From: Candidatus Magasanikbacteria bacterium CG11_big_fil_rev_8_21_14_0_20_39_34
Lineage (GTDB): Bacteria > Patescibacteriota > Patescibacteriia > Magasanikbacterales > UBA922
Length of the DNA: 64,000 bases
Reading direction: 5' to 3'
Assembly: GCA_002787355.1 (NCBI GenBank)
Contig: PCWN01000007.1
Coordinates: 315,552-379,551 of the forward strand
Shown here piece after piece: positions 3,258 through 64,000 of this stretch. The notes beneath the pieces were generated by a model that ran no database searches, was not told where the DNA came from, and was given only the letters and a program-made list of their open reading frames with translations. The position numbers and the translations under genes are program-made. Positions within the stretch are counted from its first letter, which is position 1, and each line of letters begins with the position of its first letter.

Positions 3258-3503
3258 TTACACGGTGGTGCGAGTGCGTACTTCCTCGCGGATGCGGATC
3301 ACCTCCGTGATGAACGCATCCACCTGCGCCGGCGTCATCTCATGAAGGGTTTCCCAGAAGCGTACGATCACACCAATCTGGTTGTCGGTCCAGTTGGTGT
3401 TCATCTCGCAGGTTTTGAGGACCACACCATCCGGACCAATCAGCCGCACCTGGAATGCGACCGGTTGGTGGATGAAGTAGGTTACCCCCAGCTTCTCATC
3501 CAT
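3258..3503 (-). CDS. Hypothetical 81-aa protein encoded inside a GC-rich islet
   Basis: It is the only clean ORF in the roughly 62% GC segment 3190-3565. Its codon usage differs from the host's. No family was recognised. Confidence 0.3.
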   Translation of the reverse strand: MDEKLGVTYFIHQPVAFQVRLIGPDGVVLKTCEMNTNWTDNQIGVIVRFWETLHEMTPAQVDAFITEVIRIREEVRTRTTV

Positions 3504-7371: not shown

Positions 7372-7594
7372 ATTTGCAAGAAAATCCTTTATGGAATTCA
7401 AAGCAAAAATATGTTACGATAGACAAAAATGTATTTTTTATACGCATATTTTATATTGCAACAGAAACATGAAAAATACTCTTTTTATTGAAAAACTCAA
7501 ATGTAAAGACATCATTTTTTTATTTGGTATTAGTTTTCTTTTTTACGATTTTCTTCTCAAAGGCTTAGGAGTTGCAATCCCCGTATAAAAATAT

Positions 7595-8515
7595 ATGAAA
7601 TCAAAAAATATCATTGAAATTACGGATTTCACACAAAAGGAGCTCTCTCATCTTCTCCAACGTACTCTCTATTTTAAGAAACACGAGAAAAAAATATTTT
7701 CCTTTCTCAAGAATAAACGCGTAGGTTTGCTCTTTGACTCTGCTTCTCTGAGAACAAAGCTTACTTTTGAAATTGCTACTCACAAACTTGGTGGGTTCCC
7801 CTACTTTGTCGATATAAATGCCATTACCCATGAAGACGGTATAGCCCGAGAAAGTTATGAAGATATTGTAGATACATTAGATAAATTTGTAGATGTATAT
7901 GTTGTACGAGACTATTCCCAAAATATTCTTAATGTTCTCAAAAGAAAAACCTCCCCACCAATAATAAATGGCTTTTCGATCACCGGGCATCCCAGTCAAG
8001 CTCTTGCAGACCTATCAACTATACTCTACAAGAAAAAGACGCTTGAAACACTTCAAATATGTACTGTATGCCCTTCCAATGGAAGTGGTGTGATGGAATC
8101 TTTCATTTATGGAGTATTAATGCTTGGTGGAAATATTACCATGATAACTCCAACCGGAAAATTTTTGGGAAAAAATAAAAATTTTTTTGATGTCATTAAA
8201 AACCTTTCCGGACAATTGCACATAACAAATAAAGTTGACCCTACCATTTCCACTATGGATGTTCTCTATGTAGATGAATGGTGGTTTCATAGTCCAAAGT
8301 TCCTTCAAAAGAAACCACCCCAAAAATATAGAGTTGATTCAACGTTTTTAAAGAATGCAAAAGAAGACATTATGATCCTTCACTGCCTCCCCGCACATCA
8401 TGATCGTGAAATAAGTCATGAGGTTTTCAATTCTCCCAATTCCGCTGTTTTTGAAGAAGCGGAATTTCGGGTCTACTCCGCCATGGCACTCCTTGAATAC
8501 CTTTCTAAAGGATAA
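7595..8515 (+). CDS. Aspartate/ornithine carbamoyltransferase family protein (OTCase-like)
   Basis: A carbamoyl-phosphate-binding S-x-R-T motif (SASLRTKLTFE), the HPSQALADL (HPxQ) motif, and HCLPAHHDRE (HCLP). Confidence 0.75.
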   Translation: MKSKNIIEITDFTQKELSHLLQRTLYFKKHEKKIFSFLKNKRVGLLFDSASLRTKLTFEIATHKLGGFPYFVDINAITHEDGIARESYEDIVDTLDKFVDVYVVRDYSQNILNVLKRKTSPPIINGFSITGHPSQALADLSTILYKKKTLETLQICTVCPSNGSGVMESFIYGVLMLGGNITMITPTGKFLGKNKNFFDVIKNLSGQLHITNKVDPTISTMDVLYVDEWWFHSPKFLQKKPPQKYRVDSTFLKNAKEDIMILHCLPAHHDREISHEVFNSPNSAVFEEAEFRVYSAMALLEYLSKG

Positions 8516-13847: not shown

Positions 13848-14672
13848 ATGAAAGAATCAAGAGAGATTCAAAAAAAACTCCAAACATTGCTTACCCCACA
13901 CAATGTCCTCCTCGGAGGAAGTCTGATACGCGGGGAATCAACACCCCACTCGGATGTTGATTTTTTTGTCGTGCCCAAAAATCTTTGGTCACTTTTTTTT
14001 ATTATCAGAAAAAAGCAAAGCATTCAAAAGCTTGCAGAACTTCATGTATGCTTTCCCAAATGGATTCAAAAGCACTTTTACTATGTGTATGGAAAGAATG
14101 TAGATGGCATGCTCACAAAGATTACTCCCCTGCCCCATGTTGCAGCATATAACTGTGCCATGATGTGCACTATTTTGCTCATGGAAGCCTCTATTGCCCT
14201 TGTGGATAACCACCTTACTGAAGCCAATCATATTTCTCAAAAACTCAAAAAAAATGTTCTGCTCTTAAAATATTTTCTTCAGATGAAAGAAGACAAAAAA
14301 TTGGAAAAAGGAGGACCTCTTTTTAACTTTGAACAAGATGATATTTTTTCTTTGTCTACACTCTCAAATCTCACGACAAAAGAAATTGATGTACTATTTT
14401 CTGAAATAAACTCAAAAAAAATAAAGGAAGTTTCTACCTATGTAACTCGTATTTTAGAGACTTATTTTTTGCACAAAAAGTCTCCTCTTCTTTTGGAATC
14501 ATTTTCAACTTTGGACCTCCTCCGCAAAGGAGACTTTCACACTCCCAAACGCTACTTTAATAAAAAGTGGGTTGAAAAAATAAATACAGCAATACAAAAT
14601 GAACAACACAATGAAATAAAAACATACCTAAGCCTAGCACAAAAAAAGCTCATCCACTGGATTACAATATAA
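13848..14672 (+). CDS. Pol-beta-superfamily nucleotidyltransferase domain protein
   Basis: GGSLIRGESTPHSDVDFFVV is a GS...DxD minimal nucleotidyltransferase motif. The C-terminus is helical. It starts 4 nt after the previous stop. Confidence 0.55.
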   Translation: MKESREIQKKLQTLLTPHNVLLGGSLIRGESTPHSDVDFFVVPKNLWSLFFIIRKKQSIQKLAELHVCFPKWIQKHFYYVYGKNVDGMLTKITPLPHVAAYNCAMMCTILLMEASIALVDNHLTEANHISQKLKKNVLLLKYFLQMKEDKKLEKGGPLFNFEQDDIFSLSTLSNLTTKEIDVLFSEINSKKIKEVSTYVTRILETYFLHKKSPLLLESFSTLDLLRKGDFHTPKRYFNKKWVEKINTAIQNEQHNEIKTYLSLAQKKLIHWITI

Positions 14673-14698
14673 AAAAGCCCCAAATGGGGCTTTTTCTA
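14673..14698. terminator. Bidirectional terminator hairpin (aagcccc-aaat-ggggctt, A/T flanks)
   Basis: It lies between the convergent NTase (+) and SWIB (-) genes. Confidence 0.6.
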
Positions 14699-14709
14699 TG
14701 GATTCAATC

Positions 14710-14979
14710 TTATTTTTTGTCTGGATCAGTAATGTGTGGAGTAACCAGTTTGGTCATTTCAAACATGGTAACTTCTTTCTTTCCAAAAAGAGGCATCAAA
14801 AGATCATCTGCAAAAATGTTTCTTTTGTTCTTTGGGTTCTGAAGATCATGCTTCTTAATGTATTCCCAAAGTTTCTTTACAACTTGAGAACGTGGCATTG
14901 GACCTTTTCCAACAACTGCCTCAAGCTCTGGTGATAGATTAAGTGGCTTGAGCAAAGCAGGGTTTGCTTTTCTTGGCAT
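14710..14979 (-). CDS. SWIB/MDM2 domain protein
   Basis: 89 aa with PSPELEAVVG...RSQVVKKLWEYIKKHDLQNP...IFADDLLMPLFGK, a typical SWIB domain. Confidence 0.75.
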   Translation of the reverse strand: MPRKANPALLKPLNLSPELEAVVGKGPMPRSQVVKKLWEYIKKHDLQNPKNKRNIFADDLLMPLFGKKEVTMFEMTKLVTPHITDPDKK

Positions 14980-15152
14980 AAAAAAGACATTAAAAATGAA
15001 TTACACTATTTCGCATAGAGTATAGCATGGGAAAGAAATCCTGACAAGTGACCCTGTATATTCCCCTGCTTTACGAACCATTTCTTTTCCTATATACTTT
15101 GAAGAGTAACAACCAAAAATGAAGGAGACTCAAGCCTGATTTTTACCTGATT

Positions 15153-16730
15153 TTGAACCCTATGGCCCTCTACCACAAGCACAGACCACAATCTTTTCAT
15201 GATATTGCAGGACAACTTCACATTGTTCAGACCATTACAAACCAAATCAAATCAAATAAGATTTCCCATGCCTATCTTTTTTCAGGTCCTCGTGGAGTTG
15301 GAAAAACAACACTGGCACGTGTATTTGCAAAATCCATCAACTGCAAAAAAATGGATGGCTCAGAATTTGAACCGGATAATACCACCCAAGATGCCATAGA
15401 AATTACCTCAGGCAGATCCATTGATGTGATTGAGATAGATGCTGCCAGTAACACGGGTGTAGATAATGTCCGTGAGAATATCATTGAGAATGTTCAATTT
15501 CGCCCTACAAAGCTTCCCTACAAGGTTTTCATCATAGATGAGGTCCACATGCTCTCAACTAGTGCATTTAATGCCCTTCTCAAAACATTGGAGGAACCCC
15601 CCAAGCATGCCATATTTATTTTGGCGACGACAGAAATTCATAAACTTCCCAAAACGATTGTTTCTCGTTGTCAGGTCTTTCAATTTGAAAAACTCTCTTT
15701 CCCGGTCCTCAAAGAGTATCTTCTCAAAATTGCAAAGGAAGAAGATATCACCCTTGAGGATGCACTCCTGGACGCTATTATTTACAAAAGTGATGGATGT
15801 GCAAGAGACGCCATAAATCTATTGGATCAAATGATGTCTACTGGTGAAAAAAATATCACTTTTGATATTGCTTCCGCACTTTTGCCAAGTGCATCTAAAA
15901 ACGATATTCTAAAACTTCTTTTTTCACTTTCTCAAAAAGATCTTCGTGAATCCGTTGAAGCCATACACGCGCTCCAAGCACAAAATATTCATGTAAATTT
16001 TGCTTTTGAAGAATCCATCACCATTTTGCGACATGCACTCTTACTCAGTATTAATCAAAATGATTCAGAATACATAAAACTTGAGTACGAACAAACCGCT
16101 CTTTCTCTTCTCACACAGATTGTAGATCATCTTTCCCGTCAAGATATGATTTGCCTTCTTGATCTTCTCCTCAAACGAAAAACAGAAACCAAAACGGCAC
16201 CTATCCCCTATCTCCCGCTGGAAATTCTTGCCGTGGAATGGTGTGAACCCGTAACCACGAAGACCAAACCTCCCGAAATACAAACTCCTGTACCCAAGAA
16301 AACGGAATCCAAAATAGAAAAGCTGGTCCACAAGGTAGAAGAAAAAGTGGAAGAAATAGTTGCTTCACCTCCCCCCGACAAAATAGAACCACTTTCTTCT
16401 CAACCTTCCTCTGTCTTACTTTCTGATGTTCAAAAAAAATGGCCTGAGTTTTTGAAACTGGTAGAAAAAGAAGCACCCTCACTGTGTTTTATCCTCCAAA
16501 ATTCAGAGATTCTCTCTCTTGAAAATAATACCATACAGGTTTCTGTAGAATATGCTTTTCACAGAGACAAGATAGAACAGGTTCAAACCAAACAAAAACT
16601 TGAAAAGGCGCTTGCGGAGGCCATAGGAGCTACATTGTATATTGAGCCACAAGTTCTTATGAAAGATGCAGAAAAACAAAAAAAAGAACTTGATGGACTT
16701 GCCAACCTTATTGGTGGTGAAGTCCTTTAG
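15153..16730 (+). CDS. dnaX: DNA polymerase III subunit gamma/tau
   Basis: YHKHRPQSFHDIAGQ, Walker A GPRGVGKTT, the SRC motif (TIVSRCQVFQF) and a Zn-module CxxC region. Confidence 0.9.
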   Translation: MNPMALYHKHRPQSFHDIAGQLHIVQTITNQIKSNKISHAYLFSGPRGVGKTTLARVFAKSINCKKMDGSEFEPDNTTQDAIEITSGRSIDVIEIDAASNTGVDNVRENIIENVQFRPTKLPYKVFIIDEVHMLSTSAFNALLKTLEEPPKHAIFILATTEIHKLPKTIVSRCQVFQFEKLSFPVLKEYLLKIAKEEDITLEDALLDAIIYKSDGCARDAINLLDQMMSTGEKNITFDIASALLPSASKNDILKLLFSLSQKDLRESVEAIHALQAQNIHVNFAFEESITILRHALLLSINQNDSEYIKLEYEQTALSLLTQIVDHLSRQDMICLLDLLLKRKTETKTAPIPYLPLEILAVEWCEPVTTKTKPPEIQTPVPKKTESKIEKLVHKVEEKVEEIVASPPPDKIEPLSSQPSSVLLSDVQKKWPEFLKLVEKEAPSLCFILQNSEILSLENNTIQVSVEYAFHRDKIEQVQTKQKLEKALAEAIGATLYIEPQVLMKDAEKQKKELDGLANLIGGEVL

Positions 16731-16738
16731 AGAAAAAC

Positions 16739-17725
16739 ATGAAATCCTCCATTCTTACTTTATGTATAATTTTCTGTGCCCTCTTTGGAGGTATTTCTTT
16801 TGTGTCTGCAACAAATTTACCCGTACCCTTTACCATACAAGCCCCCGATGAACACTGGAGAGAGCCTTGGGAAAATGCCTGTGAAGAAGCCACACTCACG
16901 ATGGTAAACCTCTATTACCAAATGGCAATACCACAAAGAACTATACCTGTAGATCAGGCCATTGCAGAGATTCTTCGTGTTTTTCGTATAAAAAATGCTA
17001 CTCTTGGCACCAGTTTTGATGAGAATGCAGAAAAAATAACTTTTCTTATAAATAACTATTTCCCTTTTGAAGCCTACACGGTAGAAAACCCAACCCTGGA
17101 ACAGATAAAGGCAGAAATAGATGCTCAAAGACCGGTTATAGGACTCTTCTATGGACGAGATCTTCACAACCAATATTTTCGTGATGGTGGACCTGCGTAC
17201 CATACCTTCCCCATAAGTGGTTATGATGATGAAAAACAGGAGTTTATTGTTCAAGAGACGGGTACACGCCATGGTCTTGACTTTCGCTATTCTTATGCTA
17301 CAATAATGCGTGCTATCCACGATTTTGTGCCCCACAATGTACAAAATAGTCCCAAAAGGATCATCTTTACCCGCACCATGACCGCGGAAACTCGTAATCT
17401 GGATGCAGATAAAGATGGACTTTCAAAAAGTGAAGAAATACTGTCAGGAACGGATATGTTTCTTCCCGATACGGACTTTGACGGATTTTCGGATGGTATT
17501 GAGGTAAAATATGACTACTCTCCAAAAATTGCAGAGTTGAAACTTCCCACAGGAACCCTCATAAAAAGCAAACATGCTCCAAGTGTGTATCTCCTTGACG
17601 GAAGGAGCAAAAGATTGATTCTCTCTGAAAAAGCTTTTTTAGAGAGAGGATATAAATGGGAAAATATTTTAGATGTCAGTGATGGATTTTTGCGTAGGCT
17701 CAGTGATGGAGCCAATATAGAATAA
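16739..17725 (+). CDS. Secreted papain-like cysteine peptidase (Peptidase_C39-like) with C-terminal extension
   Basis: Signal peptide. A catalytic Cys context NACEEATLTMVNLYY and a downstream GGPAYHTFPISGYDD (His). The C-terminus is D-rich. Confidence 0.55.
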   Translation: MKSSILTLCIIFCALFGGISFVSATNLPVPFTIQAPDEHWREPWENACEEATLTMVNLYYQMAIPQRTIPVDQAIAEILRVFRIKNATLGTSFDENAEKITFLINNYFPFEAYTVENPTLEQIKAEIDAQRPVIGLFYGRDLHNQYFRDGGPAYHTFPISGYDDEKQEFIVQETGTRHGLDFRYSYATIMRAIHDFVPHNVQNSPKRIIFTRTMTAETRNLDADKDGLSKSEEILSGTDMFLPDTDFDGFSDGIEVKYDYSPKIAELKLPTGTLIKSKHAPSVYLLDGRSKRLILSEKAFLERGYKWENILDVSDGFLRRLSDGANIE

Positions 17726-17734
17726 CAACATTAT

Positions 17735-17805
17735 TCGGGGATCGTCTAATGGTAGGACTCCAGGTTCTGGTCCTGGCTATCGGGGTTCGAGTCCCTGTCC
17801 CCGAG
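17735..17805 (+). tRNA. tRNA-Gln (anticodon CTG)
   Basis: Hand-folded cloverleaf. Acceptor stem TCGGGGA/TCCCCGA with U1:A72 and G73. 4-bp D-stem with a GG loop. Anticodon stem CCAGG/CCTGG with loop TTCTGGT. T-arm CGGGG-TTCGAGT-CCCTG. Confidence 0.85.
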
Positions 17806-17820
17806 CAAGCAAGGGTGAGC

Positions 17821-17845
17821 AGGCACGAGAGTGCCTGTTTTCTTG
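17821..17845 (+). terminator. Hairpin + T-run after the tRNA
   Basis: aggcac-gaga-gtgcct followed by gttttcttg. Confidence 0.5.
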
Positions 17846-17863
17846 TATTCTGAGCCATTTTTT

Positions 17864-17879
17864 AGAAGTTCGGAAGTTG
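17864..17879. repeat. Direct repeat copy 1 (AGAAGTTCGGAAGTTG), candidate att-like island boundary
   Basis: It matches 24918-24933 at 15 of 16 positions, with 13 of 13 in the core. It sits about 60 nt past the tRNA-Gln 3' end. Confidence 0.4.
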
Positions 17880-17930
17880 CGTTTAGCTTGGGCATCCATT
17901 CAGCCAAAAACTGATATGCTGGTGTCGCTG

Positions 17931-18254
17931 TTACGTGTACTTCGCGTTCAAGCGTGAGTTCCATATGAGAGAAAAAACGGGACAATAAGAGACGTTTTTC
18001 TTCGGGTGAGGTTTGTCTTCTCGTGCGTTAAATGCGAGCCTGTGAATCTCTAGCCCTACTTCGTAGTAGTTATCGACCCGATCTTCGAGATTTTCAAGCT
18101 GTTTCAAAATAGAGCGTTTCTCACGTTTGTAATCATCCGCTTTTCTCTTGTAATACTCGTCGGTTATCACGCCGTCCAGCCTGTCCTCGTACATTTTGTC
18201 GAGACGACCCTCGAGCCTCTCTATAGCCTCGTTGAGCTGTTTGCGTGATGTCAT
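17931..18254 (-). pseudogene. Recombinase-like remnant (coiled-coil segment resembling the C-terminal region of large serine recombinases); likely a decayed integrase
   Basis: 107 aa with LEGRLDKMYEDRLDGVITDEYYKRKADDYKREKRSILKQLENLE. It has no catalytic domain. The surrounding roughly 900 bp has about 50% GC and only fragmentary ORFs. Confidence 0.3.
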
Positions 18255-18343
18255 GGAATAATCCGTCTTGTCTTGGTTCTTTTCCTTGAGAGCCTCGTTA
18301 TGTGATTGTTTATACAGACACCAGCGAGAAGAGAGGTCAAGCG

Positions 18344-18517
18344 TTATCGTTTATGCTTGGTCTTGTCGACCAATGTAAACTTCTTCGCTTCACCTGCATA
18401 CGGCGGAGCTGTTTCACCTTTGGTCAACGTGATTTCACGTCTAGTTCCTGACGGTCGATATTGACCCGAAACAGGTGCTTTGTGCCCCGTCGATGTTGTT
18501 ACCTTTTTGTTAGGCAT
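18344..18517 (-). CDS. Small basic hypothetical ORF (57 aa) in the island's decayed region
   Basis: Hand-translated MPNKKVTTSTGHKAPVSGQYRPSGTRREITLTKGETAPPYAGEAKKFTLVDKTKHKR. It falls below the ORF-track length cutoff. Confidence 0.2.
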   Translation of the reverse strand: MPNKKVTTSTGHKAPVSGQYRPSGTRREITLTKGETAPPYAGEAKKFTLVDKTKHKR

Positions 18518-18697
18518 ACATTTTCGGTTAGCCGATGAATAAAACGGGTAGCGTCCGACTTTTACTCCGCCCCGCGGAGTAAAAACCTCAATAGATTTGC
18601 ACTCCGGAGGGGGTAAAGTGAGCTGATCCGAGAGTATTCAAAGGGGGCTGAAATTATCTCGCTGGCATCTATATAAACAACTGATTGGAATGAACGC

Positions 18698-19297
18698 TTA
18701 CAAATTTCTGATGACCTTTACGACCACACCCTGCACGTCTACCTGTCTATGATACGTTGGCTCGTATTTCCCATTGGCCGGCTGTAGCCGTATCCTGTTC
18801 TGCTCTTGGTATATCCGCTTTAATGTCGCCTCGCTGTCTTCGAGAAGTGCAACGACCGTATCGCCATTGTCCGCACTCTTTTGCTGTTTTGCGATGATAA
18901 TATCTCCGTCGAGGATACCGTCTTCAATCATGGAATCGCCTTTGGCTCTTAGAGCGAATAGCCTACCTCGCAGAGCGTACTCCCTGGCGACTTTGACTGT
19001 TGTATCGTCGTATTCCTCAAGAGCTTCAATGGGTGAACCGCATGAAATAGTCCCTTTTATGGGAACCTCGATATAATCCGTGCGTTTTTTGGGCAGTGAG
19101 AGGCCTCTTTCTCGACGGTCGTACCGTTTGAGGAAGCCTTTATCCACCAAAGCCGAAACACGGTCGTGTACGGTTGATATGGCGGATAATTCAAAATGAT
19201 CTCGGATGTCATCGAAAGAGGGGGCGTACCCGTTCTGGTCGATGTACGAGGTGATGTAGTCGAGCGTTTCTCGTTGTCTTTTCGTCAGCGTGTTCAT
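18698..19297 (-). CDS. lexA: LexA-family transcriptional repressor (wHTH + S24 autopeptidase)
   Basis: N-terminal LexA DNA-binding domain (LTKRQRETLDYITSYIDQNGYAPSFDDI). Catalytic Ser in AKGDSMIEDGI and Lys in ATLKRIY. An Ala-Gly cleavage-site-like RAKG is present. The start is taken at MNTL. Confidence 0.8.
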   Translation of the reverse strand: MNTLTKRQRETLDYITSYIDQNGYAPSFDDIRDHFELSAISTVHDRVSALVDKGFLKRYDRRERGLSLPKKRTDYIEVPIKGTISCGSPIEALEEYDDTTVKVAREYALRGRLFALRAKGDSMIEDGILDGDIIIAKQQKSADNGDTVVALLEDSEATLKRIYQEQNRIRLQPANGKYEPTYHRQVDVQGVVVKVIRNL

Positions 19298-19346
19298 GTG
19301 GTATATTATAACCGAAGAAAATCCGAATAGCAAATCCGAAAAAGTG

Positions 19347-19375
19347 TGGACAAGTGCTCAAAAAAGGAGTATCAT
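19347..19375 (+). promoter_or_regulatory. Putative sigma70-type promoter for the mod operon (TGGACA-N17-TATCAT), inside the divergent lexA-mod intergenic region
   Basis: Hexamers read directly from the sequence. The adjacent direct repeat AAATCCGAA x2 at about 19321-19346 is a possible operator. Confidence 0.3.
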
Positions 19376-19405
19376 ATAAATCGTTAGACAAAACCCGTAC
19401 TAATT

Positions 19406-20953
19406 ATGCCTACACTCAACTGGATCGGTAAAGAGGCAGTAGTCAATCATGACAAAGAAGTCCCTTTCAAGCTCCTCAAAAAAGTAAAATCTCAATCAGT
19501 AGGTGAAAATTCACACAATCTGATTATCCATGGCGATAACCTAGAGGCATTAAAAGCATTAATGCCTTATTATGTTGGAAAAATAAAATGTATCTACATT
19601 GATCCCCCTTACAACACTGGAAACGAGGGGTGGGTTTATAACGATAAGGTTAATTCGCCAAAAATAAAAAAGTGGCTTGGAAAGGTTGTAGGTAATGAAC
19701 CTACAGACCTCTGTAGACATGATAAGTGGTTGTGCATGATGTATCCACGCTTAAAACTTTTGCGTGATCTTTTGCGTGATGATGGTGCTATTTTTATATC
19801 TATTGATGACAACGAACATTGTCATTTGAAAATGATTTTAGATGAAATGTTTGGCATTGAAAATTTTGTTACAAACATCATTTGGCAAAAAAAATATACA
19901 CAAAGTAATGATGCAAAATATTTTTCATCTACGCATGATTTTATAGTGTGCTATGCAAAAAATATTAAGAATGCGGATTTCAAAATAAATCTTTTAGAAA
20001 GAACGGAGAAACAGAACGCACGTTACAAAAATTTGGATAATGACCCACGGGGGCCATGGATGACACAGCCCCTACATGCAAAAAGTGGAAATGACAAAAC
20101 CTATACGTTTACATTTCAAAATGGTGTTAAATGGAAGCCCCCAGCAGGTACTTTTCCGAGATATAGTTTAGACACTTTGCGGAAGGCTGAGATGAACGGT
20201 GAAATATGGTTTGGAGCAAAAGGGACTGCCGTGCCACGTCTTAAAAAATACTTGAATGAAATGAAAGACGGCGTTATACCTAAAACAATTTGGCTTTATG
20301 ATGAGGTTGGTAGTAATGACGATGCAAAAAAAGAATTAAAGAATGTTTTTGACGACAATCCCTTTGCGACACCAAAGCCAACAAAACTATTGAAAACAAT
20401 TTTTAAAATTTCATCAGGGAAAGACGATATTGTATTAGATTCATTTGCTGGATCAGGCACTGCTGGACATTCAATTTTGGATCTCAATAAAGAAGACGGC
20501 GGAAAAAGAAAATTTATTCTTGTAGAAATGGAAGATGATATTGCTAAAAATATCACCGCCGAAAGAATAAGACGAGTGTGCAAAACAAATGAATATTCAG
20601 ATGGTTTTGAATATTGTGAGCTTACAAAACCACTTTTTGATGAAAATGGTCAAATAGAGAAAGAGTGTGACTTCAATCAGTTTGCCACATATATCTATTT
20701 TACCGAAACGCAGACAAACATCGACAAGGCAAAAATCAATAAGAATTTTATCGGTGAATACAGCGACACACATTTTTATCTTATCTACAAAGAGAAAGGC
20801 AAAAATGTTCTTACCAAAACTTTTTTACGACAGCTCAAAAAAGACGGTGCGAGAAAAATCGTTTATGCTGATCGCTGTATGGTTGACGATGATATTCTTG
20901 AAGAATACAACATTGTATTTAAGCAAATCCCTTACGAGGTAAAAGTTTACTAA
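19406..20953 (+). CDS. mod: Type III restriction-modification system methyltransferase (Mod), N6-adenine beta-class
   Basis: Motif IV DPPY (CIYIDPPYNTG) precedes motif I FAGSGTAGHS. The N-terminus is Mod-like (IIHGDNLEALKAL). Confidence 0.8.
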   Translation: MPTLNWIGKEAVVNHDKEVPFKLLKKVKSQSVGENSHNLIIHGDNLEALKALMPYYVGKIKCIYIDPPYNTGNEGWVYNDKVNSPKIKKWLGKVVGNEPTDLCRHDKWLCMMYPRLKLLRDLLRDDGAIFISIDDNEHCHLKMILDEMFGIENFVTNIIWQKKYTQSNDAKYFSSTHDFIVCYAKNIKNADFKINLLERTEKQNARYKNLDNDPRGPWMTQPLHAKSGNDKTYTFTFQNGVKWKPPAGTFPRYSLDTLRKAEMNGEIWFGAKGTAVPRLKKYLNEMKDGVIPKTIWLYDEVGSNDDAKKELKNVFDDNPFATPKPTKLLKTIFKISSGKDDIVLDSFAGSGTAGHSILDLNKEDGGKRKFILVEMEDDIAKNITAERIRRVCKTNEYSDGFEYCELTKPLFDENGQIEKECDFNQFATYIYFTETQTNIDKAKINKNFIGEYSDTHFYLIYKEKGKNVLTKTFLRQLKKDGARKIVYADRCMVDDDILEEYNIVFKQIPYEVKVY

Positions 20954-55786: not shown

Positions 55787-57571
55787 TCAAAGTGGGATGA
55801 TAGTGCCACCAACACGCCTTGTTGGAAAGCTACTATCTTTGGATGATGCCGTCTTCTTAACACTTTGTGGAAGGGTATATGCAGGGTGAATGATAAAATA
55901 TTTTTGAGCCCCCTTTGCCACTGATGAATTTACCTTGTCCACCAAAGCACCCTTAGGAAATTCAAACGCTTCATCTGGAAGAGTTGTAATGCTTTGAGAG
56001 CCCACGGGTGAACGTCCTTGAAGAATTTCCTTGGCGTCATCAACACCATCAAAGTCTGTGTCTTTTGAAATTGGATTACTCAGCCAAACAAAAATTTCCT
56101 CGTAGTCACTGAGGGTGTCCCCGTCTGAATCAGCATTACTATCCAGTGATCCATACTCTTGCTCTACTGATAATTCCACTCCATCGTGATCTCGATCCAC
56201 AATATTTTCATCATTGTTTTGAATGCTTTGGCTTTCCATAACATAAAATGCTTTCAATTCATTGGGCAAACGAAGAATCCGCTCATTCCAGAGATCCCCA
56301 TATACAAGACGCGCTTCAACGGCAGAGCGGATTTGACGTAGGACACATCCAGGCTCTACAGCATACACGTTTGTATCCCCTGAAAATTGAATCAGAAATG
56401 TTCCCGGACGAACACAGACGGGATCACCAACCGGATACTGAGACAGTTTTATATCACTCACAAAGTTTACACTAGAAAAATCTGCATACCAAGAATGATA
56501 AATTGACATTTGTGAAAATGGATGAATTTTATCATCAAAACCCAAATAGTAAATTCCAGAACCAGGACTCTTTAGGAGTGTTCCCCCCTTAAGACCTCCT
56601 TCCTTTGGTATATAATTGATAGTATCCACAACATTACCTTCTCTCCCCTGTGAATCAAGATAGTAAACATAAACTGTCTTTCTTCCCTTCCCATCTGAAA
56701 GAATCCACGGAATTTCCTTTTGGACTGGGACAAAATCAATAGCATCAAGCACACTCTTTGAATTACTGTTGCTTACTTTTATTCCTTCTACTCCGTCTGT
56801 ATTACTCAATTGGAGTAATACAGACCGACTGGAAGTATCACCCGTTCCAGAATTAATATTCATTTTCATATCTACCAATGAAACCGGTTCAAATTTTATG
56901 ATATCACTATACACTTTTCCTTCTTGCAAAAGCTCATCACGAAACTGGACATACACGGTTTTCTCAATACCTTCATCAAAACCAAGATTCCATTTCAAAC
57001 TGGATTTATATGGACGCCACCCAACTCTTTCTAAACCATTCAAAGAATTTGCAATACGCATATCCTTCATCCCCTTTGGCTTGGTAATGTAGAGGGTTAC
57101 TTGGCGGTATTTTGTACTCGCTTGTGAGCCATTAATACGAATATAGGTTTTATTTTTTTCTGCTTCGGTCTCTTCCCGTAAAATAATGCTATCACTATAA
57201 ATAAGACTATTTACATTTTCCTTATCGCGAAACTGAACATAAACGGTTTTTTCTTCATAACTAAATGGGAGTGTCCAATTTACACGAGAAGTATAACTTC
57301 TCCATGTGGCATGCAAGAGATCATCCAAGTCATTTCCAATACGCATTTGTACCGCTCCGGTAGGTCTACTTATACTCAAAACTACATGTTTACTCGTGGT
57401 GTATGTAGCACCTCCATCAATAGAGAGGTATTTACTTCGCAGATATTCTGAAAAAGCCTTTCCCGGAGAAAGAATCAGCAAAAGAAACAAAATGGTAGTG
57501 CTCCAAAGAAAAGCACGCCGTGAAACTTGAAATTTGGCCATAATTATGATTAAATAAAGCAAGAATTTCAT
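55787..57571 (-). CDS. Secreted repeat protein with C-terminal thrombospondin-type-3-like Ca-binding Asp-rich repeats
   Basis: An N-terminal hydrophobic anchor. About four tandem ~100-aa domains (a recurring TVYVQFRD motif). C-terminal DxDxDG-type repeats. Confidence 0.5.
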   Translation of the reverse strand: MKFLLYLIIIMAKFQVSRRAFLWSTTILFLLLILSPGKAFSEYLRSKYLSIDGGATYTTSKHVVLSISRPTGAVQMRIGNDLDDLLHATWRSYTSRVNWTLPFSYEEKTVYVQFRDKENVNSLIYSDSIILREETEAEKNKTYIRINGSQASTKYRQVTLYITKPKGMKDMRIANSLNGLERVGWRPYKSSLKWNLGFDEGIEKTVYVQFRDELLQEGKVYSDIIKFEPVSLVDMKMNINSGTGDTSSRSVLLQLSNTDGVEGIKVSNSNSKSVLDAIDFVPVQKEIPWILSDGKGRKTVYVYYLDSQGREGNVVDTINYIPKEGGLKGGTLLKSPGSGIYYLGFDDKIHPFSQMSIYHSWYADFSSVNFVSDIKLSQYPVGDPVCVRPGTFLIQFSGDTNVYAVEPGCVLRQIRSAVEARLVYGDLWNERILRLPNELKAFYVMESQSIQNNDENIVDRDHDGVELSVEQEYGSLDSNADSDGDTLSDYEEIFVWLSNPISKDTDFDGVDDAKEILQGRSPVGSQSITTLPDEAFEFPKGALVDKVNSSVAKGAQKYFIIHPAYTLPQSVKKTASSKDSSFPTRRVGGTIIPL

Positions 57572-57616
57572 CTCTAGTATACCACACACTGCTAAAGAAC
57601 AAAATGGACCTTTTTT

Positions 57617-61406: not shown

Positions 61407-62540
61407 ATGAAAATACTTTTTCTCATTACCAAAGCAGAAGTGGGGGGTGCACAAAAAATGACCCTCACCCTCTCCAAAGAGCTCAAACGTCGTGGCCATG
61501 AGGTCATGCTTGGTTTGGGAAAAAATACCGGAACTTTTTTGATTGATGAGCTTCAAAAAGAAGATATTCCCTTTCATACCTTTTCATACCTCTCAAGAAG
61601 CCTGAATCCCCTTTTGATTTTTCAATTTAAAAAAGAATTTTCTCAGTTTCTCAGTAAGAATTCTTTTGATGTTATTCATCTCAATAGCTCCAATACACTT
61701 CCCGCTGCAGAAGTTACGAAGAAAAAAAGTCCCAAAACAAAAACGGTGTTCACCTTTCGAGGGCTTTCCTATCTTGACCCGGGTTCAAAAAAATATCTTC
61801 TCAAATTCTTTTTTCAAAAATTTTATCTTCACTACCTCCCATTTATTGACCATCCCGTTTTCGTAAGTCAGACCAATCGTGAATATGCAAACAAAATTAA
61901 CCTCTGCAAAAGCCAAGAGGTTGTTTACAATGCTCCCGAAGTAGAATATCTCTCAAAACAGGAATCCGAGGAAGAACTTGAACGGCTTATCCATAAAGAA
62001 AAAGGATTTCTCAGAGAAAAACAAATTTTGGGATCCATAGGAAGGCTAGCATACCCAAAAAACTATGAACTTATATTCAAAGCCCTTCCAAAGCTTTTAC
62101 AGACAAATCCAAATATTCTGTTTTTTCTTTTTGGAAGTGGACCGGAATTTCAAAATTATCAGTCCATCATTCAAAAAGAAAATCTTTCTGAAAACGTTTT
62201 TATCCTCCAGGCGGAAAACGCTGCACAATACCTCAAGGGATTTCATATTTTTGTCCTCCCATCCCTCTATGAAGGGCTCTCGATTACACTCATTGAAGCG
62301 CTCCAAGCGCATATTCCCATAGTTGCCTCAGACGTAGGAGGAAGCCATGAAGTTCTCCATGATGATACAAATCAGCTCTTTGAAAGTGGTCATGAGACTG
62401 CTTTGTGTGAAAAAATAAAAGCATTTTTGGATAATAGAATGCTTTTTGAAGAAACTATAGAAAAAAACAAGGTTTTTTCAAAAGATTTTGGTGTCAAAAC
62501 CATGGTTGAGGATTATCTGAAAATATACACAAAAAAATAG
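61407..62540 (+). CDS. Glycosyltransferase family 4
   Basis: MKILFLITKAEVGGAQK and a C-terminal FVLPSLYEGLSITLIEALQAHIPIVASDVGGSHEV. Confidence 0.75.
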   Translation: MKILFLITKAEVGGAQKMTLTLSKELKRRGHEVMLGLGKNTGTFLIDELQKEDIPFHTFSYLSRSLNPLLIFQFKKEFSQFLSKNSFDVIHLNSSNTLPAAEVTKKKSPKTKTVFTFRGLSYLDPGSKKYLLKFFFQKFYLHYLPFIDHPVFVSQTNREYANKINLCKSQEVVYNAPEVEYLSKQESEEELERLIHKEKGFLREKQILGSIGRLAYPKNYELIFKALPKLLQTNPNILFFLFGSGPEFQNYQSIIQKENLSENVFILQAENAAQYLKGFHIFVLPSLYEGLSITLIEALQAHIPIVASDVGGSHEVLHDDTNQLFESGHETALCEKIKAFLDNRMLFEETIEKNKVFSKDFGVKTMVEDYLKIYTKK

Positions 62541-62572
62541 CTAAAATAAGATAAAAAATAAATTACATCGCA

Positions 62573-62596
62573 AGGCCTTGAAAAAGGCCTTTTTTA
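62573..62596 (+). terminator. Rho-independent terminator (aggcctt-gaaa-aaggcct + T6)
   Basis: Read directly from the sequence; it follows the GT4 gene. Confidence 0.65.
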
Positions 62597-62598
62597 TA

Positions 62599-62627
62599 TT
62601 GACAAAAGGGTCTTTTTTTGCTACAAT
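62599..62627 (+). promoter_or_regulatory. Near-consensus sigma70 promoter TTGACA-N17-TACAAT
   Basis: Both hexamers are perfect or near-perfect with 17-nt spacing. It sits about 290 nt upstream of the GC-rich lipoprotein ORF. Confidence 0.5.
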
Positions 62628-62685
62628 AGCCAGTTATTGTATATAGTGTACAATAGAGTGTTCTTTACAAAATCTCAGGCTCTAC

Positions 62686-62726
62686 AGGTAGGAAAAAATT
62701 GATATGCTGTCAATTTTTTCCTGCCT
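62686..62726 (+). other. 18-19 bp perfect RNA hairpin (with G-U pairs) in the 5' leader
   Basis: aggtaggaaaaaattgata / tgtcaattttttcctgcct, read from the sequence. It sits at the AT-rich/GC-rich junction. Confidence 0.5.
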
Positions 62727-62913
62727 AGCTCTCTCCGCTGTTGCGCGAAGGGCGGAAGTAGGGCTTGGGTCCCACAGCATGGGTCCTTCTCCGGTAATTT
62801 CTCCGGAGTGACGTTACCTTCCATGCACGGTAGTAATACTGGTGGGAAAAAGATGCAATGTGCGCTCTATCGGGAAAGGTGCCCGAGAAAGCGTAGGATA
62901 CAGGAGTCTTGTC

Positions 62914-64000
62914 ATGAACCGGTTTTTCACCCTGGTGGCGGCCTGCCTTTTTTCGTTCCTCCTGGGCGGCTGCTTGCCGTCCTTGGAGGACGAGTGCAAC
63001 TCGGACCGGGACTGCCCCCGGTTCGCCGAGGGGGCGACCTGCCGAGTGGGCATCTGCCTGCTCGGCACGGACGCCGCCCCGACCGACGCGGCGATGAATG
63101 ATGATGGTGCGGACGGGACGAACGTCCCGACCGACGCCGCCACCGACGCCGCCACCGACGCCACCCCCGACGCGGCGATGCCCGATGCCGAGGTGCCCGA
63201 TGCCGAGGTGCCCGATGCCGAGGTGCCCGATGCCGAGGTGCCCGACGCCACCCCCGACGCGGCGATGCCCGACGCCGCACTGACCGATGCCGACATTCCC
63301 GATTCCTCGCCACCGTGCGAGGACAGTCCGTCCTTCGGGGCGGACTGTGAGACGGGGATGCCCGGCGCCTGCGCCATCGGCACCATGGAGTGTGAGCTCG
63401 GTGAGCTGGCCTGCGTGCCCGCCACCGAGCCCACCGACGAGGTGTGCGACGGCCTGGACAACGACTGCGACGAGCAGATCGACGAGGGCTTCGACCTGCA
63501 GGCCGACCCCAGCCACTGCGGCGCCTGTGGCCGCACCTGCTCCTTCGAGCACGCCACCCCGGCCTGCGTGGCCGGGGTGTGTCAGATCGAGCAGTGTGAC
63601 CAGGGGCAAGTCGATCTCGACGAGCGGCCCGACAACGGCTGCGAGTACCACTGCACGCCCACCCAGGAGGGTGAGGCGTGCGGCGATGAGATCGACAACG
63701 ACTGCGATGGCTCGGTCGACGAGGAGTGCGCCTGCGATCCTCACACCTTCCAGCCGGCCCCCTGCAACGCGCAGGGTGAGGTCGGCGCCTGCCGCAACGG
63801 CACCTCACGGTGCCAGAACGGCAACGGCTCGCGTGTCGTCTGCGAGCCGTCGCAGCCCCAAGACGAGGCCTGCGACGGTATCGACAACGACTGCGATGGA
63901 AGCATCGACGAGGGCCTGCGCAACGCCTGCGGTGAGTGTGGCGAGGTGCCCGCGGAGACCTGCAACGGTCGCGATGACAACTGCGACGGGCAGATCGACG
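62914..64000 (+). CDS. Lipoprotein (partial, runs off the window) with tandem PDAEV repeats and MopE/myxobacterial-type Cys-rich CxxGxDNDCDGxxDE repeats
   Basis: Hand-translated. It has a signal peptide with a lipobox LLGGC, four exact PDAEV repeats, and at least four C-x2-G-x-DNDCD-x3-DE modules. GC content is about 68% with extreme GC3. The ORF track missed it because it has no stop inside the window. Confidence 0.7.
   Translation, partial: MNRFFTLVAACLFSFLLGGCLPSLEDECNSDRDCPRFAEGATCRVGICLLGTDAAPTDAAMNDDGADGTNVPTDAATDAATDATPDAAMPDAEVPDAEVPDAEVPDAEVPDATPDAAMPDAALTDADIPDSSPPCEDSPSFGADCETGMPGACAIGTMECELGELACVPATEPTDEVCDGLDNDCDEQIDEGFDLQADPSHCGACGRTCSFEHATPACVAGVCQIEQCDQGQVDLDERPDNGCEYHCTPTQEGEACGDEIDNDCDGSVDEECACDPHTFQPAPCNAQGEVGACRNGTSRCQNGNGSRVVCEPSQPQDEACDGIDNDCDGSIDEGLRNACGECGEVPAETCNGRDDNCDGQID
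63181..63240 (+). repeat. 4 x 15-bp perfect tandem repeat (cccgatgccgaggtg), coding for PDAEV
   Basis: Read directly from the sequence. It lies inside the lipoprotein ORF. Confidence 0.9.

Follow-up and report, generated by a model that had tools for sequence, protein, structure and literature searches.

A high-GC lipoprotein gene of probable ancient foreign origin in the surface-polysaccharide locus of a low-GC Magasanikbacteria genome

In the Peregrinibacteria, members of the Candidate Phyla Radiation (CPR), large Cys-rich extracellular proteins with weak similarity to the Cys-rich repeat proteins of Myxococcus have been proposed to take part in attachment (PMC4736985). Here we analysed a stretch of 64,000 nucleotides (hereafter the window) from Candidatus Magasanikbacteria bacterium CG11_big_fil_rev_8_21_14_0_20_39_34 (contig PCWN01000007.1, positions 315,552 to 379,551), whose last kilobase enters a gene for a lipoprotein with Cys-rich modules of the MopE type. 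We consider it likely that this is a real single gene of a genome of ~38% GC, captured once, long ago, from a Myxococcota-like source, inherited with its flanks and encoding a regulated, lipid-anchored surface protein. We propose more tentatively, as a possibility that we hold somewhat less probable than not, that across several CPR lineages a gene-specific force keeps the gene at a stable GC content at third codon positions (GC3) of its own, ~0.9 and so ~50 points above the genome, and that its expression is under the control of a structured leader RNA of a kind not described before. What sets this system apart is that donor-like composition persists in old lineages and that the structured leader is conserved.

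The Peregrinibacteria proteins (Anantharaman et al. 2016, PMC4736985) are likewise CPR surface proteins with Myxococcus-like repeats, and they vary between strains. Their genomes have 58.5% GC (PMC4736985), so no compositional contrast exists there, and in contrast to the present case no conserved leader or locus was described. The same overall architecture as here is found in MopE-related lipoproteins of Myxococcota and Bradymonadia named 'SUMF1/EgtB/PvdO family' (for instance P0036, P0065, P0071, P0077, P0092 and P0106), which share a signal or lipobox, many modules of the Pfam family PF11617, a C-terminal PF03781 domain and a GC3 of 0.8-0.95, and which are 30-35% identical across 80-86% of the length. 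Unlike these homologs, the gene studied here lies in a CPR genome of 38% GC, within a polysaccharide locus and behind an AT-rich promoter and a structured leader of its own, and its product differs by a lower number of modules (9), by an acidic tandem-repeat linker and, in the window's lineage, by a truncated C-terminal domain.

Three further comparisons frame the results. MopE of Methylococcus capsulatus, a copper-binding surface protein and the source of the Pfam name, shares the short PF11617 motif. The copper site of MopE is built from His and kynurenine (2VOV structure); nothing here indicates such a site, and none was examined. A preliminary description of the window, made from the sequence alone, had associated the repeats with MopE-like copper-binding proteins; metal binding of this kind finds no support here beyond the shared motif and the Pfam name. 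The cores of the modules (C-D-G-x-D-N-D-C-D-G-x-x-D-E) may be closer in appearance to the Ca2+-binding DxDxDG loops of thrombospondin type 3 repeats. The second comparison is with the family of the formylglycine-generating enzyme (FGE; PF03781), which includes the non-catalytic PorK/GldK, GldJ and TvpA: PF03781 is common to all complete orthologs, and GldK, GldJ and PorK are lipoproteins, as here. The present proteins differ from FGE in having no Cys at the catalytic-pair segment, and from PorK/GldK, GldJ and TvpA in having no context of a type IX secretion system or a diversity-generating retroelement (DGR). Classical genomic islands, finally, also show atypical composition and codon usage in a discrete segment with homologs in a distant phylum; unlike them, the segment described here is a single gene without mobility machinery, occurs in lineages that diverged long ago and, in three of these, has not ameliorated despite saturated synonymous sites.

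Up to position 62000, GC content stayed at 0.33-0.43 in each block of 2 kb. Taken over windows of 300 nt it averaged 0.382 with a standard deviation (sd) of 0.039, and positions 62950-64000 had a mean of 0.708, so that the gene, at 8.4 sd above the window and with a GC3 far above that of its flanks, shows the atypical composition by which genomic islands are recognised. The climb is made in two steps, 0.44-0.55 over 62600-62900 and 0.67-0.76 from ~62900 to 64000; relative to the promoter (62599-62627) the rise begins ~100 nt and the plateau ~290 nt downstream. An abrupt switch to high GC that persists to the window end, as given in the preliminary description, is therefore correct (~0.38 to ~0.70 at 62.7-62.9 kb).

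Such a step could reflect an assembly chimera or contaminant, with a low-GC CPR contig joined to an unrelated high-GC fragment. The change does fall just where the window ends, the tandem repeats of the gene interrupt many short contigs, and a contig of this kind exists (L049, see below). An exact look-up of the neighbouring GT4 glycosyltransferase protein gave 16 contigs, 10 of which were covered by the comparison of the junction. These 10 ENA, JGI and Logan assemblies, which come from different samples and different assemblers, are 99.75-100% identical to the window over 62500-63100, and the contigs carrying the junction include ones of 180 kb (L001), 47 kb (L002) and 385 kb (the contig of the database protein P0001). 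Across the junction they differ solely in an array of 15-bp repeats encoding PDAEV, outside which the population variants are identical. The number of PDAEV units varies among otherwise identical assemblies, being 4 in the window and L002, 3 in L003 and 2 in L001, and several short contigs stop within the array, which is the reason why assemblies break at this place.

Counted from the ATG that matches window position 62914, the gene is complete in L001 (11508-14135; 875 codons) and in L002. The allele with four repeats has 885 codons, 362 of which are held by the window. Directly beyond the stop codon and terminator, GC is back to 0.27-0.40 in both contigs, and the next gene in both encodes a Polysacc_synt flippase; L001, which reaches further, adds MBOAT, GT2, methyltransferase and GT1 genes. 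Since the gene is complete and low GC resumes behind it, the high-GC DNA amounts to one gene, 2.8 kb long, within a surface-polysaccharide locus, and the high-GC stretch of the window is the 5' 40% of one real gene. The preliminary description had left it undecided whether the contig continues with high-GC genes and had offered a chimeric join or contaminant contig end as one of its two readings: low-GC flippase, MBOAT and glycosyltransferase genes follow instead. With the same junction in all 10 assemblies, the same architecture in other species and a transition that falls within a well-formed intergenic region (terminator, promoter, leader and ribosome-binding site), we give a chimera next to no credence.

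The contig L049 offers a useful contrast to the window. At 1-1100 (PVBE012134217.1) an AT-rich, phage-like kilobase of 36-39% GC is joined in the middle of an open reading frame (ORF) to 6 kb of 70-77% GC that encode MopE and FGE-sulfatase proteins, without intergenic signals at the join, and this contig looks like a true chimera.

A protein search among 5.8 billion sequences, the counterpart of the blastp comparison suggested for the translated ORF, returned P0001, named Candidatus Magasanikbacteria bacterium CG11_big_fil_rev..., at 99% identity to the window's protein. The only other close protein was P0008 (991 aa; 51%); the remainder matched at 40% identity or less and came from Myxococcota, Planctomycetota and similar metagenome-assembled genomes (MAGs). 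NCBI taxonomy places Candidatus Magasanikbacteria CG11_big_fil_rev within the Patescibacteria group, and the best relatives of the UDP-GlcNAc dehydrogenase of the locus are also Magasanikbacteria by name. The nearest non-CPR homologs of the same architecture belong to MAGs named Myxococcota, Myxococcales or Bradymonadia (30-40% identity), in line with the foreign, high-GC origin claimed for the gene, provided that this is understood as its ultimate source.

P0008 is encoded by L011, from the MAG HK-STAS-PATE-1 (GCA_020632445.1), and occupies the same slot. The gene order of L011 is that of the window (S8 peptidase, unknown, Bac_transf, epimerase, dehydrogenase, GT4, the lipoprotein gene and flippase), and its ortholog has a GC of 0.65-0.72 in flanks of 0.35-0.47. 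The L001 and L011 proteins can be aligned one module after another, and a motif search places nine strict cores collinearly in the two. Between the window's lineage and L011 the flanking proteins are 33-82% identical and the proportion of synonymous differences (pS) in the flanks is 0.70-0.80, that is, saturated; the GC3 of the gene is 0.85 and 0.92, compared with 0.25-0.44 in the flanks. Where a residue is shared, its codon is shared too in 67.2% of cases in the gene (58.8% expected from codon usage) and in 50.9% in the adjacent GT4 gene (40.2% expected). The gene and GT4 are thus both ~80% randomised, which puts the age of the high-GC gene level with the divergence of its flanks.

The third lineage is L074 (Logan SRR29965070), with a GT4 protein 55% identical, the same layout of terminator, promoter and leader, and a GC3 of 0.91 in its ortholog, which was assembled for the first 160 codons only. 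The three lineages are about equidistant and star-like, with 55-59% identity in GT4 and 40-45% in the N-terminal region of the gene product. In a fourth lineage, L076/L077, whose dehydrogenase is 73% identical to that of the window, a 625-aa lipoprotein with the four-Cys motif, an Asp-rich linker, one MopE-like module, an EGF-like module and a complete FGE-sulfatase domain is encoded directly upstream of the flippase. Its gene has a GC of 0.51 and a GC3 of 0.47, in a host with a GC3 of 0.19-0.25. An AT-rich ortholog at this position, which the preliminary description had regarded as evidence against its reading, is therefore approached by L076, while L011 and L074 stay high in GC. When the four CPR proteins were compared with the 120 best homologs, their N- and C-terminal regions were mutually best matches, forming one group. 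The outgroups L081 and L082 (dehydrogenase 66-67%) have the right-hand part of the locus and lack both the gene and the high-GC patch. Scanning genome contigs with the GT4 alignment gave L012, of the same record as L011, as the sole syntenic match, other relatives of GT4 being ~40% identical and showing neither island nor synteny; a scan of metagenome contigs with the ortholog alignment gave 45 loci, all with distant MopE proteins (30-53% identity in the best segments, mostly on contigs of 60-73% GC), and no new CPR orthologs.

These results bear directly on the idea of a very recent acquisition, in which a Myxococcota-type gene would have arrived behind a native promoter too lately to have drifted towards host composition. 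Several features of the gene are those that such an event would leave: the GC3 of 0.85-0.92, the third-position spectrum of homologs of 65-73% GC, the inverted codon usage and the lack of lysine. Recent transfer is nevertheless highly improbable, because the same slot, promoter and leader occur in lineages whose flanks are 33-82% identical and synonymously saturated, and because the gene's own synonymous sites are ~80% randomised between lineages, as diverged as those of its neighbour. The 5.8 billion sequences contained no protein like that of a donor at more than 40% identity. An island would also be expected to be non-syntenic in relatives and close to a donor, and here three syntenic lineages were found and the best non-CPR match was at most 40%. 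Nor are there mobility genes in the gene lists of the locus or direct repeats flanking the gene; the only tRNA is 45 kb away, and searches of phage and plasmid collections gave no match. The gene has been inherited together with its flanks since its capture and is an old resident rather than a fresh island, so that the 'very recent' part of the earlier claim does not stand. The simplest history suggested by these comparisons is one capture in the ancestor of the four lineages, followed by vertical descent; it would most likely have been a single, ancient event that brought the gene from a high-GC, Myxococcota-like source into a surface-polysaccharide locus, between GT4 and the flippase.

We also observed, on the Magasanikbacteria-like contig L079 (ERR7570000), an unrelated gene of 339 aa and 0.62-0.72 GC (7396-8415, minus strand) upstream of UDP-sugar dehydrogenase genes, in a slot that corresponds to that of the L076 lipoprotein. 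Its only family match was a weak one to TPR_MalT, and the gene caller had annotated the antisense strand. The slot thus seems to accept high-GC genes repeatedly.

Why does the GC content stay high? When codon usage was compared with that of the flanks, the gene showed the inverse choice in each amino-acid family (GAG, for instance, 0.89 versus 0.24, and AAC 0.96 versus 0.19), and at third positions the CPR genes have the base spectrum (G 0.28-0.34, C 0.57-0.58) of homologs in contigs of 65-73% GC. High GC could in principle be a by-product of an amino-acid composition rich in Gly, Asp, Cys, Ala and Pro, and the first two codon positions, with a GC of ~0.55-0.60, do lie above those of host genes. 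This explanation has a negligible probability in view of the GC3 of 0.85-0.92, the inversion of codon choice in every family and a homolog that has a similar GC at first (GC1) and second (GC2) positions. The latter, at L039 5221-9471 (Ga0256842_1000518), is a lipoprotein of 1416 aa with many MopE modules from a 28% GC genome, with a GC1 of 0.53, a GC2 of 0.40 and a GC3 of 0.12, and its C-terminus appears RCC1-like by eye. Because its GC3 is so low, the composition of MopE-family proteins does not force high GC.

GC is also elevated in the non-coding parts: the 3' untranslated region (UTR) has 0.49 in L001 and 0.65 in L011, compared with 0.20-0.27 past the terminator, and the leader has 0.47-0.51. 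Within the L001 gene, GC3 is 72-80% over the final 250 codons, the degenerate C-terminal domain among them, and 84-96% upstream. The lineage that lost the repeat array (L076) fell to a GC3 of 0.47.

Once synonymous sites are saturated, GC3 should, by the standard model of amelioration (Lawrence and Ochman), have come near the values of the host. Donor-like composition that persists across long-diverged lineages is not predicted by standard models of gene transfer, and saturated sites with a donor-like GC3 imply either a fixation bias towards G/C or repeated re-import from an unseen donor. In the latter case the gene would be old and its coding body would be replaced periodically by homologous recombination from an unsampled high-GC reservoir, for instance the hosts of these DNA-scavenging episymbionts, which would keep its composition donor-like. 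This fits the fully donor-like composition and third-position spectrum in three lineages, the lower GC of the leader and of the L001 3' UTR relative to the coding body (the L011 3' UTR does not follow this pattern) and the different high-GC gene in the neighbouring slot of L079, which suggests that the locus accepts foreign high-GC DNA. We regard re-import as unlikely all the same, as neither the 5.8 billion proteins nor the scan of metagenome contigs yielded a suitable source (no high-GC ortholog above 40% identity in the former, no close one in the latter), the divergence of the gene tracks that of its flanks in a star-like manner and the order of the modules is strictly collinear.

For a gene inherited vertically, a GC3 of ~0.9 that is kept despite synonymous turnover implies that some gene-specific force favours G/C. 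This force would be selection on codons or on the mRNA, or GC-biased conversion at a recombination hotspot; a candidate for the former would be selection for G/C-ending codons or a GC-rich mRNA in a heavily disulfide-bonded secreted protein. In an Akashi-type test GC3 was slightly higher at conserved than at variable residues (Mantel-Haenszel odds ratio 1.7 in both lineages, p = 0.03 and 0.06), a weak hint of codon-level selection. We also considered homogenisation of the modules by intragenic conversion and saw no sign of it, positional orthologs being the best DNA matches for 5 of the 9 modules. The literature on GC content and horizontal gene transfer in Magasanikbacteria, and on non-ameliorated transfers, yielded nothing directly relevant.

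The second unusual part of the system is its control region (Table 1). The promoter stands directly behind the GT4 terminator, and near-identical sequence is present in L011 (cTTGACAaaagcgtcattttttgcTATAAT), L074 and L076; the preliminary description had correctly seen a host-like, AT-rich and near-consensus promoter here. A hairpin equivalent to the GT4 terminator is found at the same place in L011 and L074. The palindrome at the predicted transcription start forms consensus helix 1 of the leader, with 8 pairs that are paired in 3/3 sequences and that have changed on one side only; it would be either the first leader hairpin or, more speculatively, an operator-like site. All four lineages share the single-stranded leader motif TTCTTTACA (62661-62669), and GGAGGAAAC precedes the ATG in L011 and L074.

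Between lineages that are saturated at synonymous sites, the leader is ~70% conserved. Its folding energy corresponded to z-scores of -7.0 (window) and -4.7 (L011) relative to shuffled sequences, and in the consensus of three lineages there are 75 pairs, 94% of the cells being paired. Compensatory changes occur in 19 of these pairs, compared with 7.0 +/- 2.1 in shuffles (0/500 reach 19) and 2-5 in slid controls, a count from only three sequences, the same three from which the structure was derived. A covariance model of the leader core (R1) was found only upstream of the gene in the window, L001, L011 and L074 (98-106 bits). Over 301 kb of related loci R1 gave no further copies and did not detect the shorter leader of L076, which retains the TTCTTTACA motif and the CCGC/GCGG hairpin. 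Searches of Rfam 15 with the leader and the high-GC segment (E<=1) and with the whole window (gathering score) gave no credible family; SdsR_RyeB and RT-4 rows on the leader, with E 0.4-0.9, were below threshold and were put down to chance. A conserved promoter of its own together with a conserved structured leader of 280 nt points to post-transcriptional control: the strong promoter would drive the gene and the leader, a candidate new cis-regulatory RNA, would regulate it after transcription.

The encoded protein starts with MNRFFTLVAACLFSFLLGGC, which carries a lipobox. Judged by eye, the sequence has what is expected of a substrate of signal peptidase II, namely a positively charged N-terminus, a hydrophobic stretch and a lipobox of the form [LVI][ASTVIG][GAS]C (MNRFFTLVAACLFSFLLGG|C), and the lipobox Cys behind a hydrophobic stretch is conserved as LLGAC in L011, MVGC in L074 and LSGC in L076. 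Lgt has been reported in another CPR group (PMC4736985). A partial lipoprotein ORF with lipobox from 62914, four perfect 15-bp PDAEV repeats and Cys-rich MopE-type modules of a kind common in Myxococcota had all been described from the sequence, and each was recovered: the ORF has an ATG and a ribosome-binding site and stays open to the window end, Tandem Repeats Finder reports 63179-63249 with a period of 15, 4.7 copies and 98% matches, with four perfect units, and PF11617 (Cu-binding_MopE) matches the window part in 4 stretches with E 8.4e-17 and 61.6 bits, above the gathering cut-off of 27. The full protein scores 153.6 bits in 9 stretches, and its order is lipobox Cys20, four-Cys motif, acidic variable linker, nine PF11617 stretches and a C-terminal PF03781 domain, with MopE-type cores alternating with Cys-rich beta-hairpin segments. 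Strict cores were numbered 1-9 by a regular expression (63445 is core 1, 63871 core 2 and 63961 core 3); the core at 63679 fails this expression yet is one of the four Pfam stretches.

The 875-aa protein of L001 is strongly acidic (Asp 11.5%, Glu 7.3%), has 9.6% Cys and is entirely free of lysine, of which the L076 ortholog has 7 residues. In L001, 11994-12107 and 12852-12965 form an intragenic repeat of 114 nt that is 86% identical (91% over a 79-nt core) and corresponds to strict cores 1 and 5. The modules of these two cores are also alike within L011, which points to an old duplication or to occasional conversion.

The C-terminal PF03781 domain (FGE-sulfatase) is truncated in the window's lineage, where it scores 36.8 bits over profile positions 87-193 of 255, and complete in L011 (125 bits, positions 3-255) and L076 (169.9 bits). 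No Cys follows the RGGS motif in P0008 (...RGGSAADFGRNPANGVLNYRFARR...), P0001 (...AGGSFANAIEHFQPGVM...) or L076 (...RGGGFPTSTTNLRATRR...). This segment after RGGS is where the catalytic Cys pair of human FGE, C336/C341, lies, and the orthologs, having no Cys at that site, are not formylglycine-generating enzymes. Sequence matches of the domain in the PDB are TvpA, CotH, PvdO, FGE and PorK/GldK, and NCBIfam scores are far below their cut-offs. The Cys-rich part had no sequence match among PDB chains, MopE included.

For the complete domain of L011 the best PDB match is TvpA (2y3c; E 9.4e-16), the variable protein of a DGR of T. denticola, and this raises the possibility that the domain is a DGR target and the gene encodes a hypervariable receptor-binding protein. 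The domain is C-terminal and of the C-type-lectin/FGE type, as in the usual targets, which are FGE-sulfatase or C-type-lectin domains (PMC5758913, PMC11661182). We think this very unlikely: no reverse transcriptase was called within 10 kb in L001, L002 or L011, no template-repeat copy of the 3' end was found in the window, L001 or L011, the population variants are identical outside the PDAEV array, and the domain is truncated in the window's lineage.

From its sequence features and its neighbours, the protein is probably a regulated surface adhesin or glycan-binding protein. A lipid-anchored stalk, stiffened by disulfides, would hold a ligand-binding, lectin-like head beyond the cell wall and the polysaccharide layer, and the head would bind a glycan or the surface of a partner cell, making the protein an adhesin or a glycan-organising protein of an episymbiont; the length of the spacer varies by slippage of the 15-bp PDAEV units. 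Such a stalk-and-head role would fit the fixed slot in a glycan locus and the earlier proposals for Cys-rich CPR proteins (PMC4736985).

Several observations weigh against parts of this overall interpretation. The donor-like third-position spectrum is also what a recent transfer would give. The view that the gene is ancient and vertically inherited rests on three or four lineages, one of them represented by 160 codons only, and the host phylogeny was approximated by the identity of one enzyme. The function is drawn from domain content and gene neighbourhood only, and with the head truncated or degenerate in the window's lineage, a binding role there is doubtful. An AlphaFold2 model of P0001 from an alignment of 24 sequences was poor, with a mean predicted local distance difference test score (pLDDT) of 53.6, a predicted template modelling score (pTM) of 0.24 and a pLDDT of 25-55 in the head domain, and was therefore not used; a Foldseek search of this model against the PDB gave nothing at E<=0.001.

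Table 1. Features at the 3' end of the window (positions of the window)
Feature	Position	Strand	Basis or remark
Intrinsic terminator of the GT4 gene, end of the preceding host transcription unit	62572..62591	+	terminator scan: 8-bp stem and T-run
Sigma-70-type promoter, extended -10, TTGACA-17-TGcTACAAT	62599..62627	+	11/12 positions and upstream TG
Conserved palindrome at predicted transcription start, TTATTGTA-N7-TACAATA	62634..62656	+	consensus helix 1
Structured 5' leader, ~280 nt, GC ~0.5	62634..62913	+	folding and covariation
Leader core: 17-bp hairpin (62687-62725) and CCGC/GCGG hairpin within outer stem	62672..62772	+	
Ribosome-binding site AGGAG, 7 nt before ATG	62902..62906	+	read from sequence
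Lipoprotein coding sequence, cut by window end	62914..64000	+	ATG start, open frame; GC 0.70, GC3 0.88
Signal peptide, lipobox L-G-G-C (Cys20)	62914..62973	+	read from sequence
Four-Cys motif C-x5-C-x8-C-x4-C behind lipid anchor	62995..63057	+	conserved in all four CPR lineages
Acidic Asp/Ala/Pro-rich low-complexity linker	63061..63315	+	contains 12-bp array (63130-63173) and 15-bp PDAEV array
Start of Cys-rich module array	63316..64000	+	C-x-G-x-D-N-D-C-D-G-x-x-D-E cores
Module cores in window	63445-63486, 63679-63723, 63871-63912, 63961-64000	+	

On its minus strand the high-GC stretch has long ORFs rich in Arg, Gly and Ser, which are an ordinary by-product of the antisense of coding DNA of 70% GC. 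They had been put down as antisense artefacts, and we agree, as their composition fits such an antisense strand and gene callers predict ORFs of this kind on short contigs. On the short contigs that end within the gene (L003 11319-12323, minus strand; L004, L005, L009, L010 and L074) the callers chose Arg-rich antisense ORFs over the true frame, so that public protein collections hold spurious proteins and partial orthologs are missed.

The slot of the gene lies between the GT4 glycosyltransferase gene (61407-62540) and that of a Wzx-type flippase. Elsewhere in this locus, a conserved protein of ~580 aa is encoded beside the S8 peptidase (L001 4381-6135, equal to window 55787-57589). It has no Pfam match in the window's lineage, and its homolog at L075 4437-6128 has a faint match to TSP3_bac (bacterial thrombospondin type 3 repeat); if this match is a guide, the locus may encode a further surface protein that binds Ca. 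Between the lipoprotein and flippase genes of L001 (14243-14293) lies a perfect AT-rich inverted repeat of 23 bp that looks like a bidirectional terminator; the Rfam model of the plastid psbA 3' UTR matched this hairpin below threshold on both strands, which we took as chance. The L011 locus includes, at 14573-19588, sulfotransferases, a fusion of adenylylsulfate (APS) kinase and GTPase (CysNC-like) and proteins of the PAPS_reduct (CysD-like) and inositol-phosphatase (CysQ-like) families, implying a sulfated surface polysaccharide beside the FGE-fold lipoprotein. In the window's lineage MBOAT and methyltransferase genes stand in place of these sulfation genes.

Two other GC-rich patches were seen near the start of the window. 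An intergenic patch of ~430 nt (937-1370) has a GC of 0.52-0.56 in a genome of 0.38; it contains no convincing ORF and gave no Rfam match at E<=0.1, and folding of the two strands gave no signal (z +0.3 and +0.5). The patch may be left over from a further high-GC insertion that is decaying. The other patch, whose 300-nt windows reach 0.54-0.58, holds a small gene, the second GC-rich one in this genome: an ORF of 81 aa at 3258-3503 on the minus strand (MDEKLGVTYFIHQPV...). By eye it has an AT-rich upstream region with TTGACA on the minus strand and a hairpin downstream, and it had no Pfam match.

Composition-based methods would flag the lipoprotein gene as a recent transfer or as contamination, and binning or decontamination may cut contigs at this place; as a real and old resident gene, it provides a clean counter-example to flagging of this kind. 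Three lineages with saturated sites at a GC3 of ~0.9 and a fourth at 0.47 constitute a natural experiment in bacteria whose genomes are tiny, one that bears on amelioration, on selection among codons and on GC-biased conversion. If the high GC3 is indeed maintained, compositional foreignness can persist as a trait that is kept, and is not merely a clock of recent transfer. For the Magasanikbacteria themselves, the protein is a concrete candidate for attachment to hosts or particles, and its Myxococcota-like origin could hint at past ecological contact.

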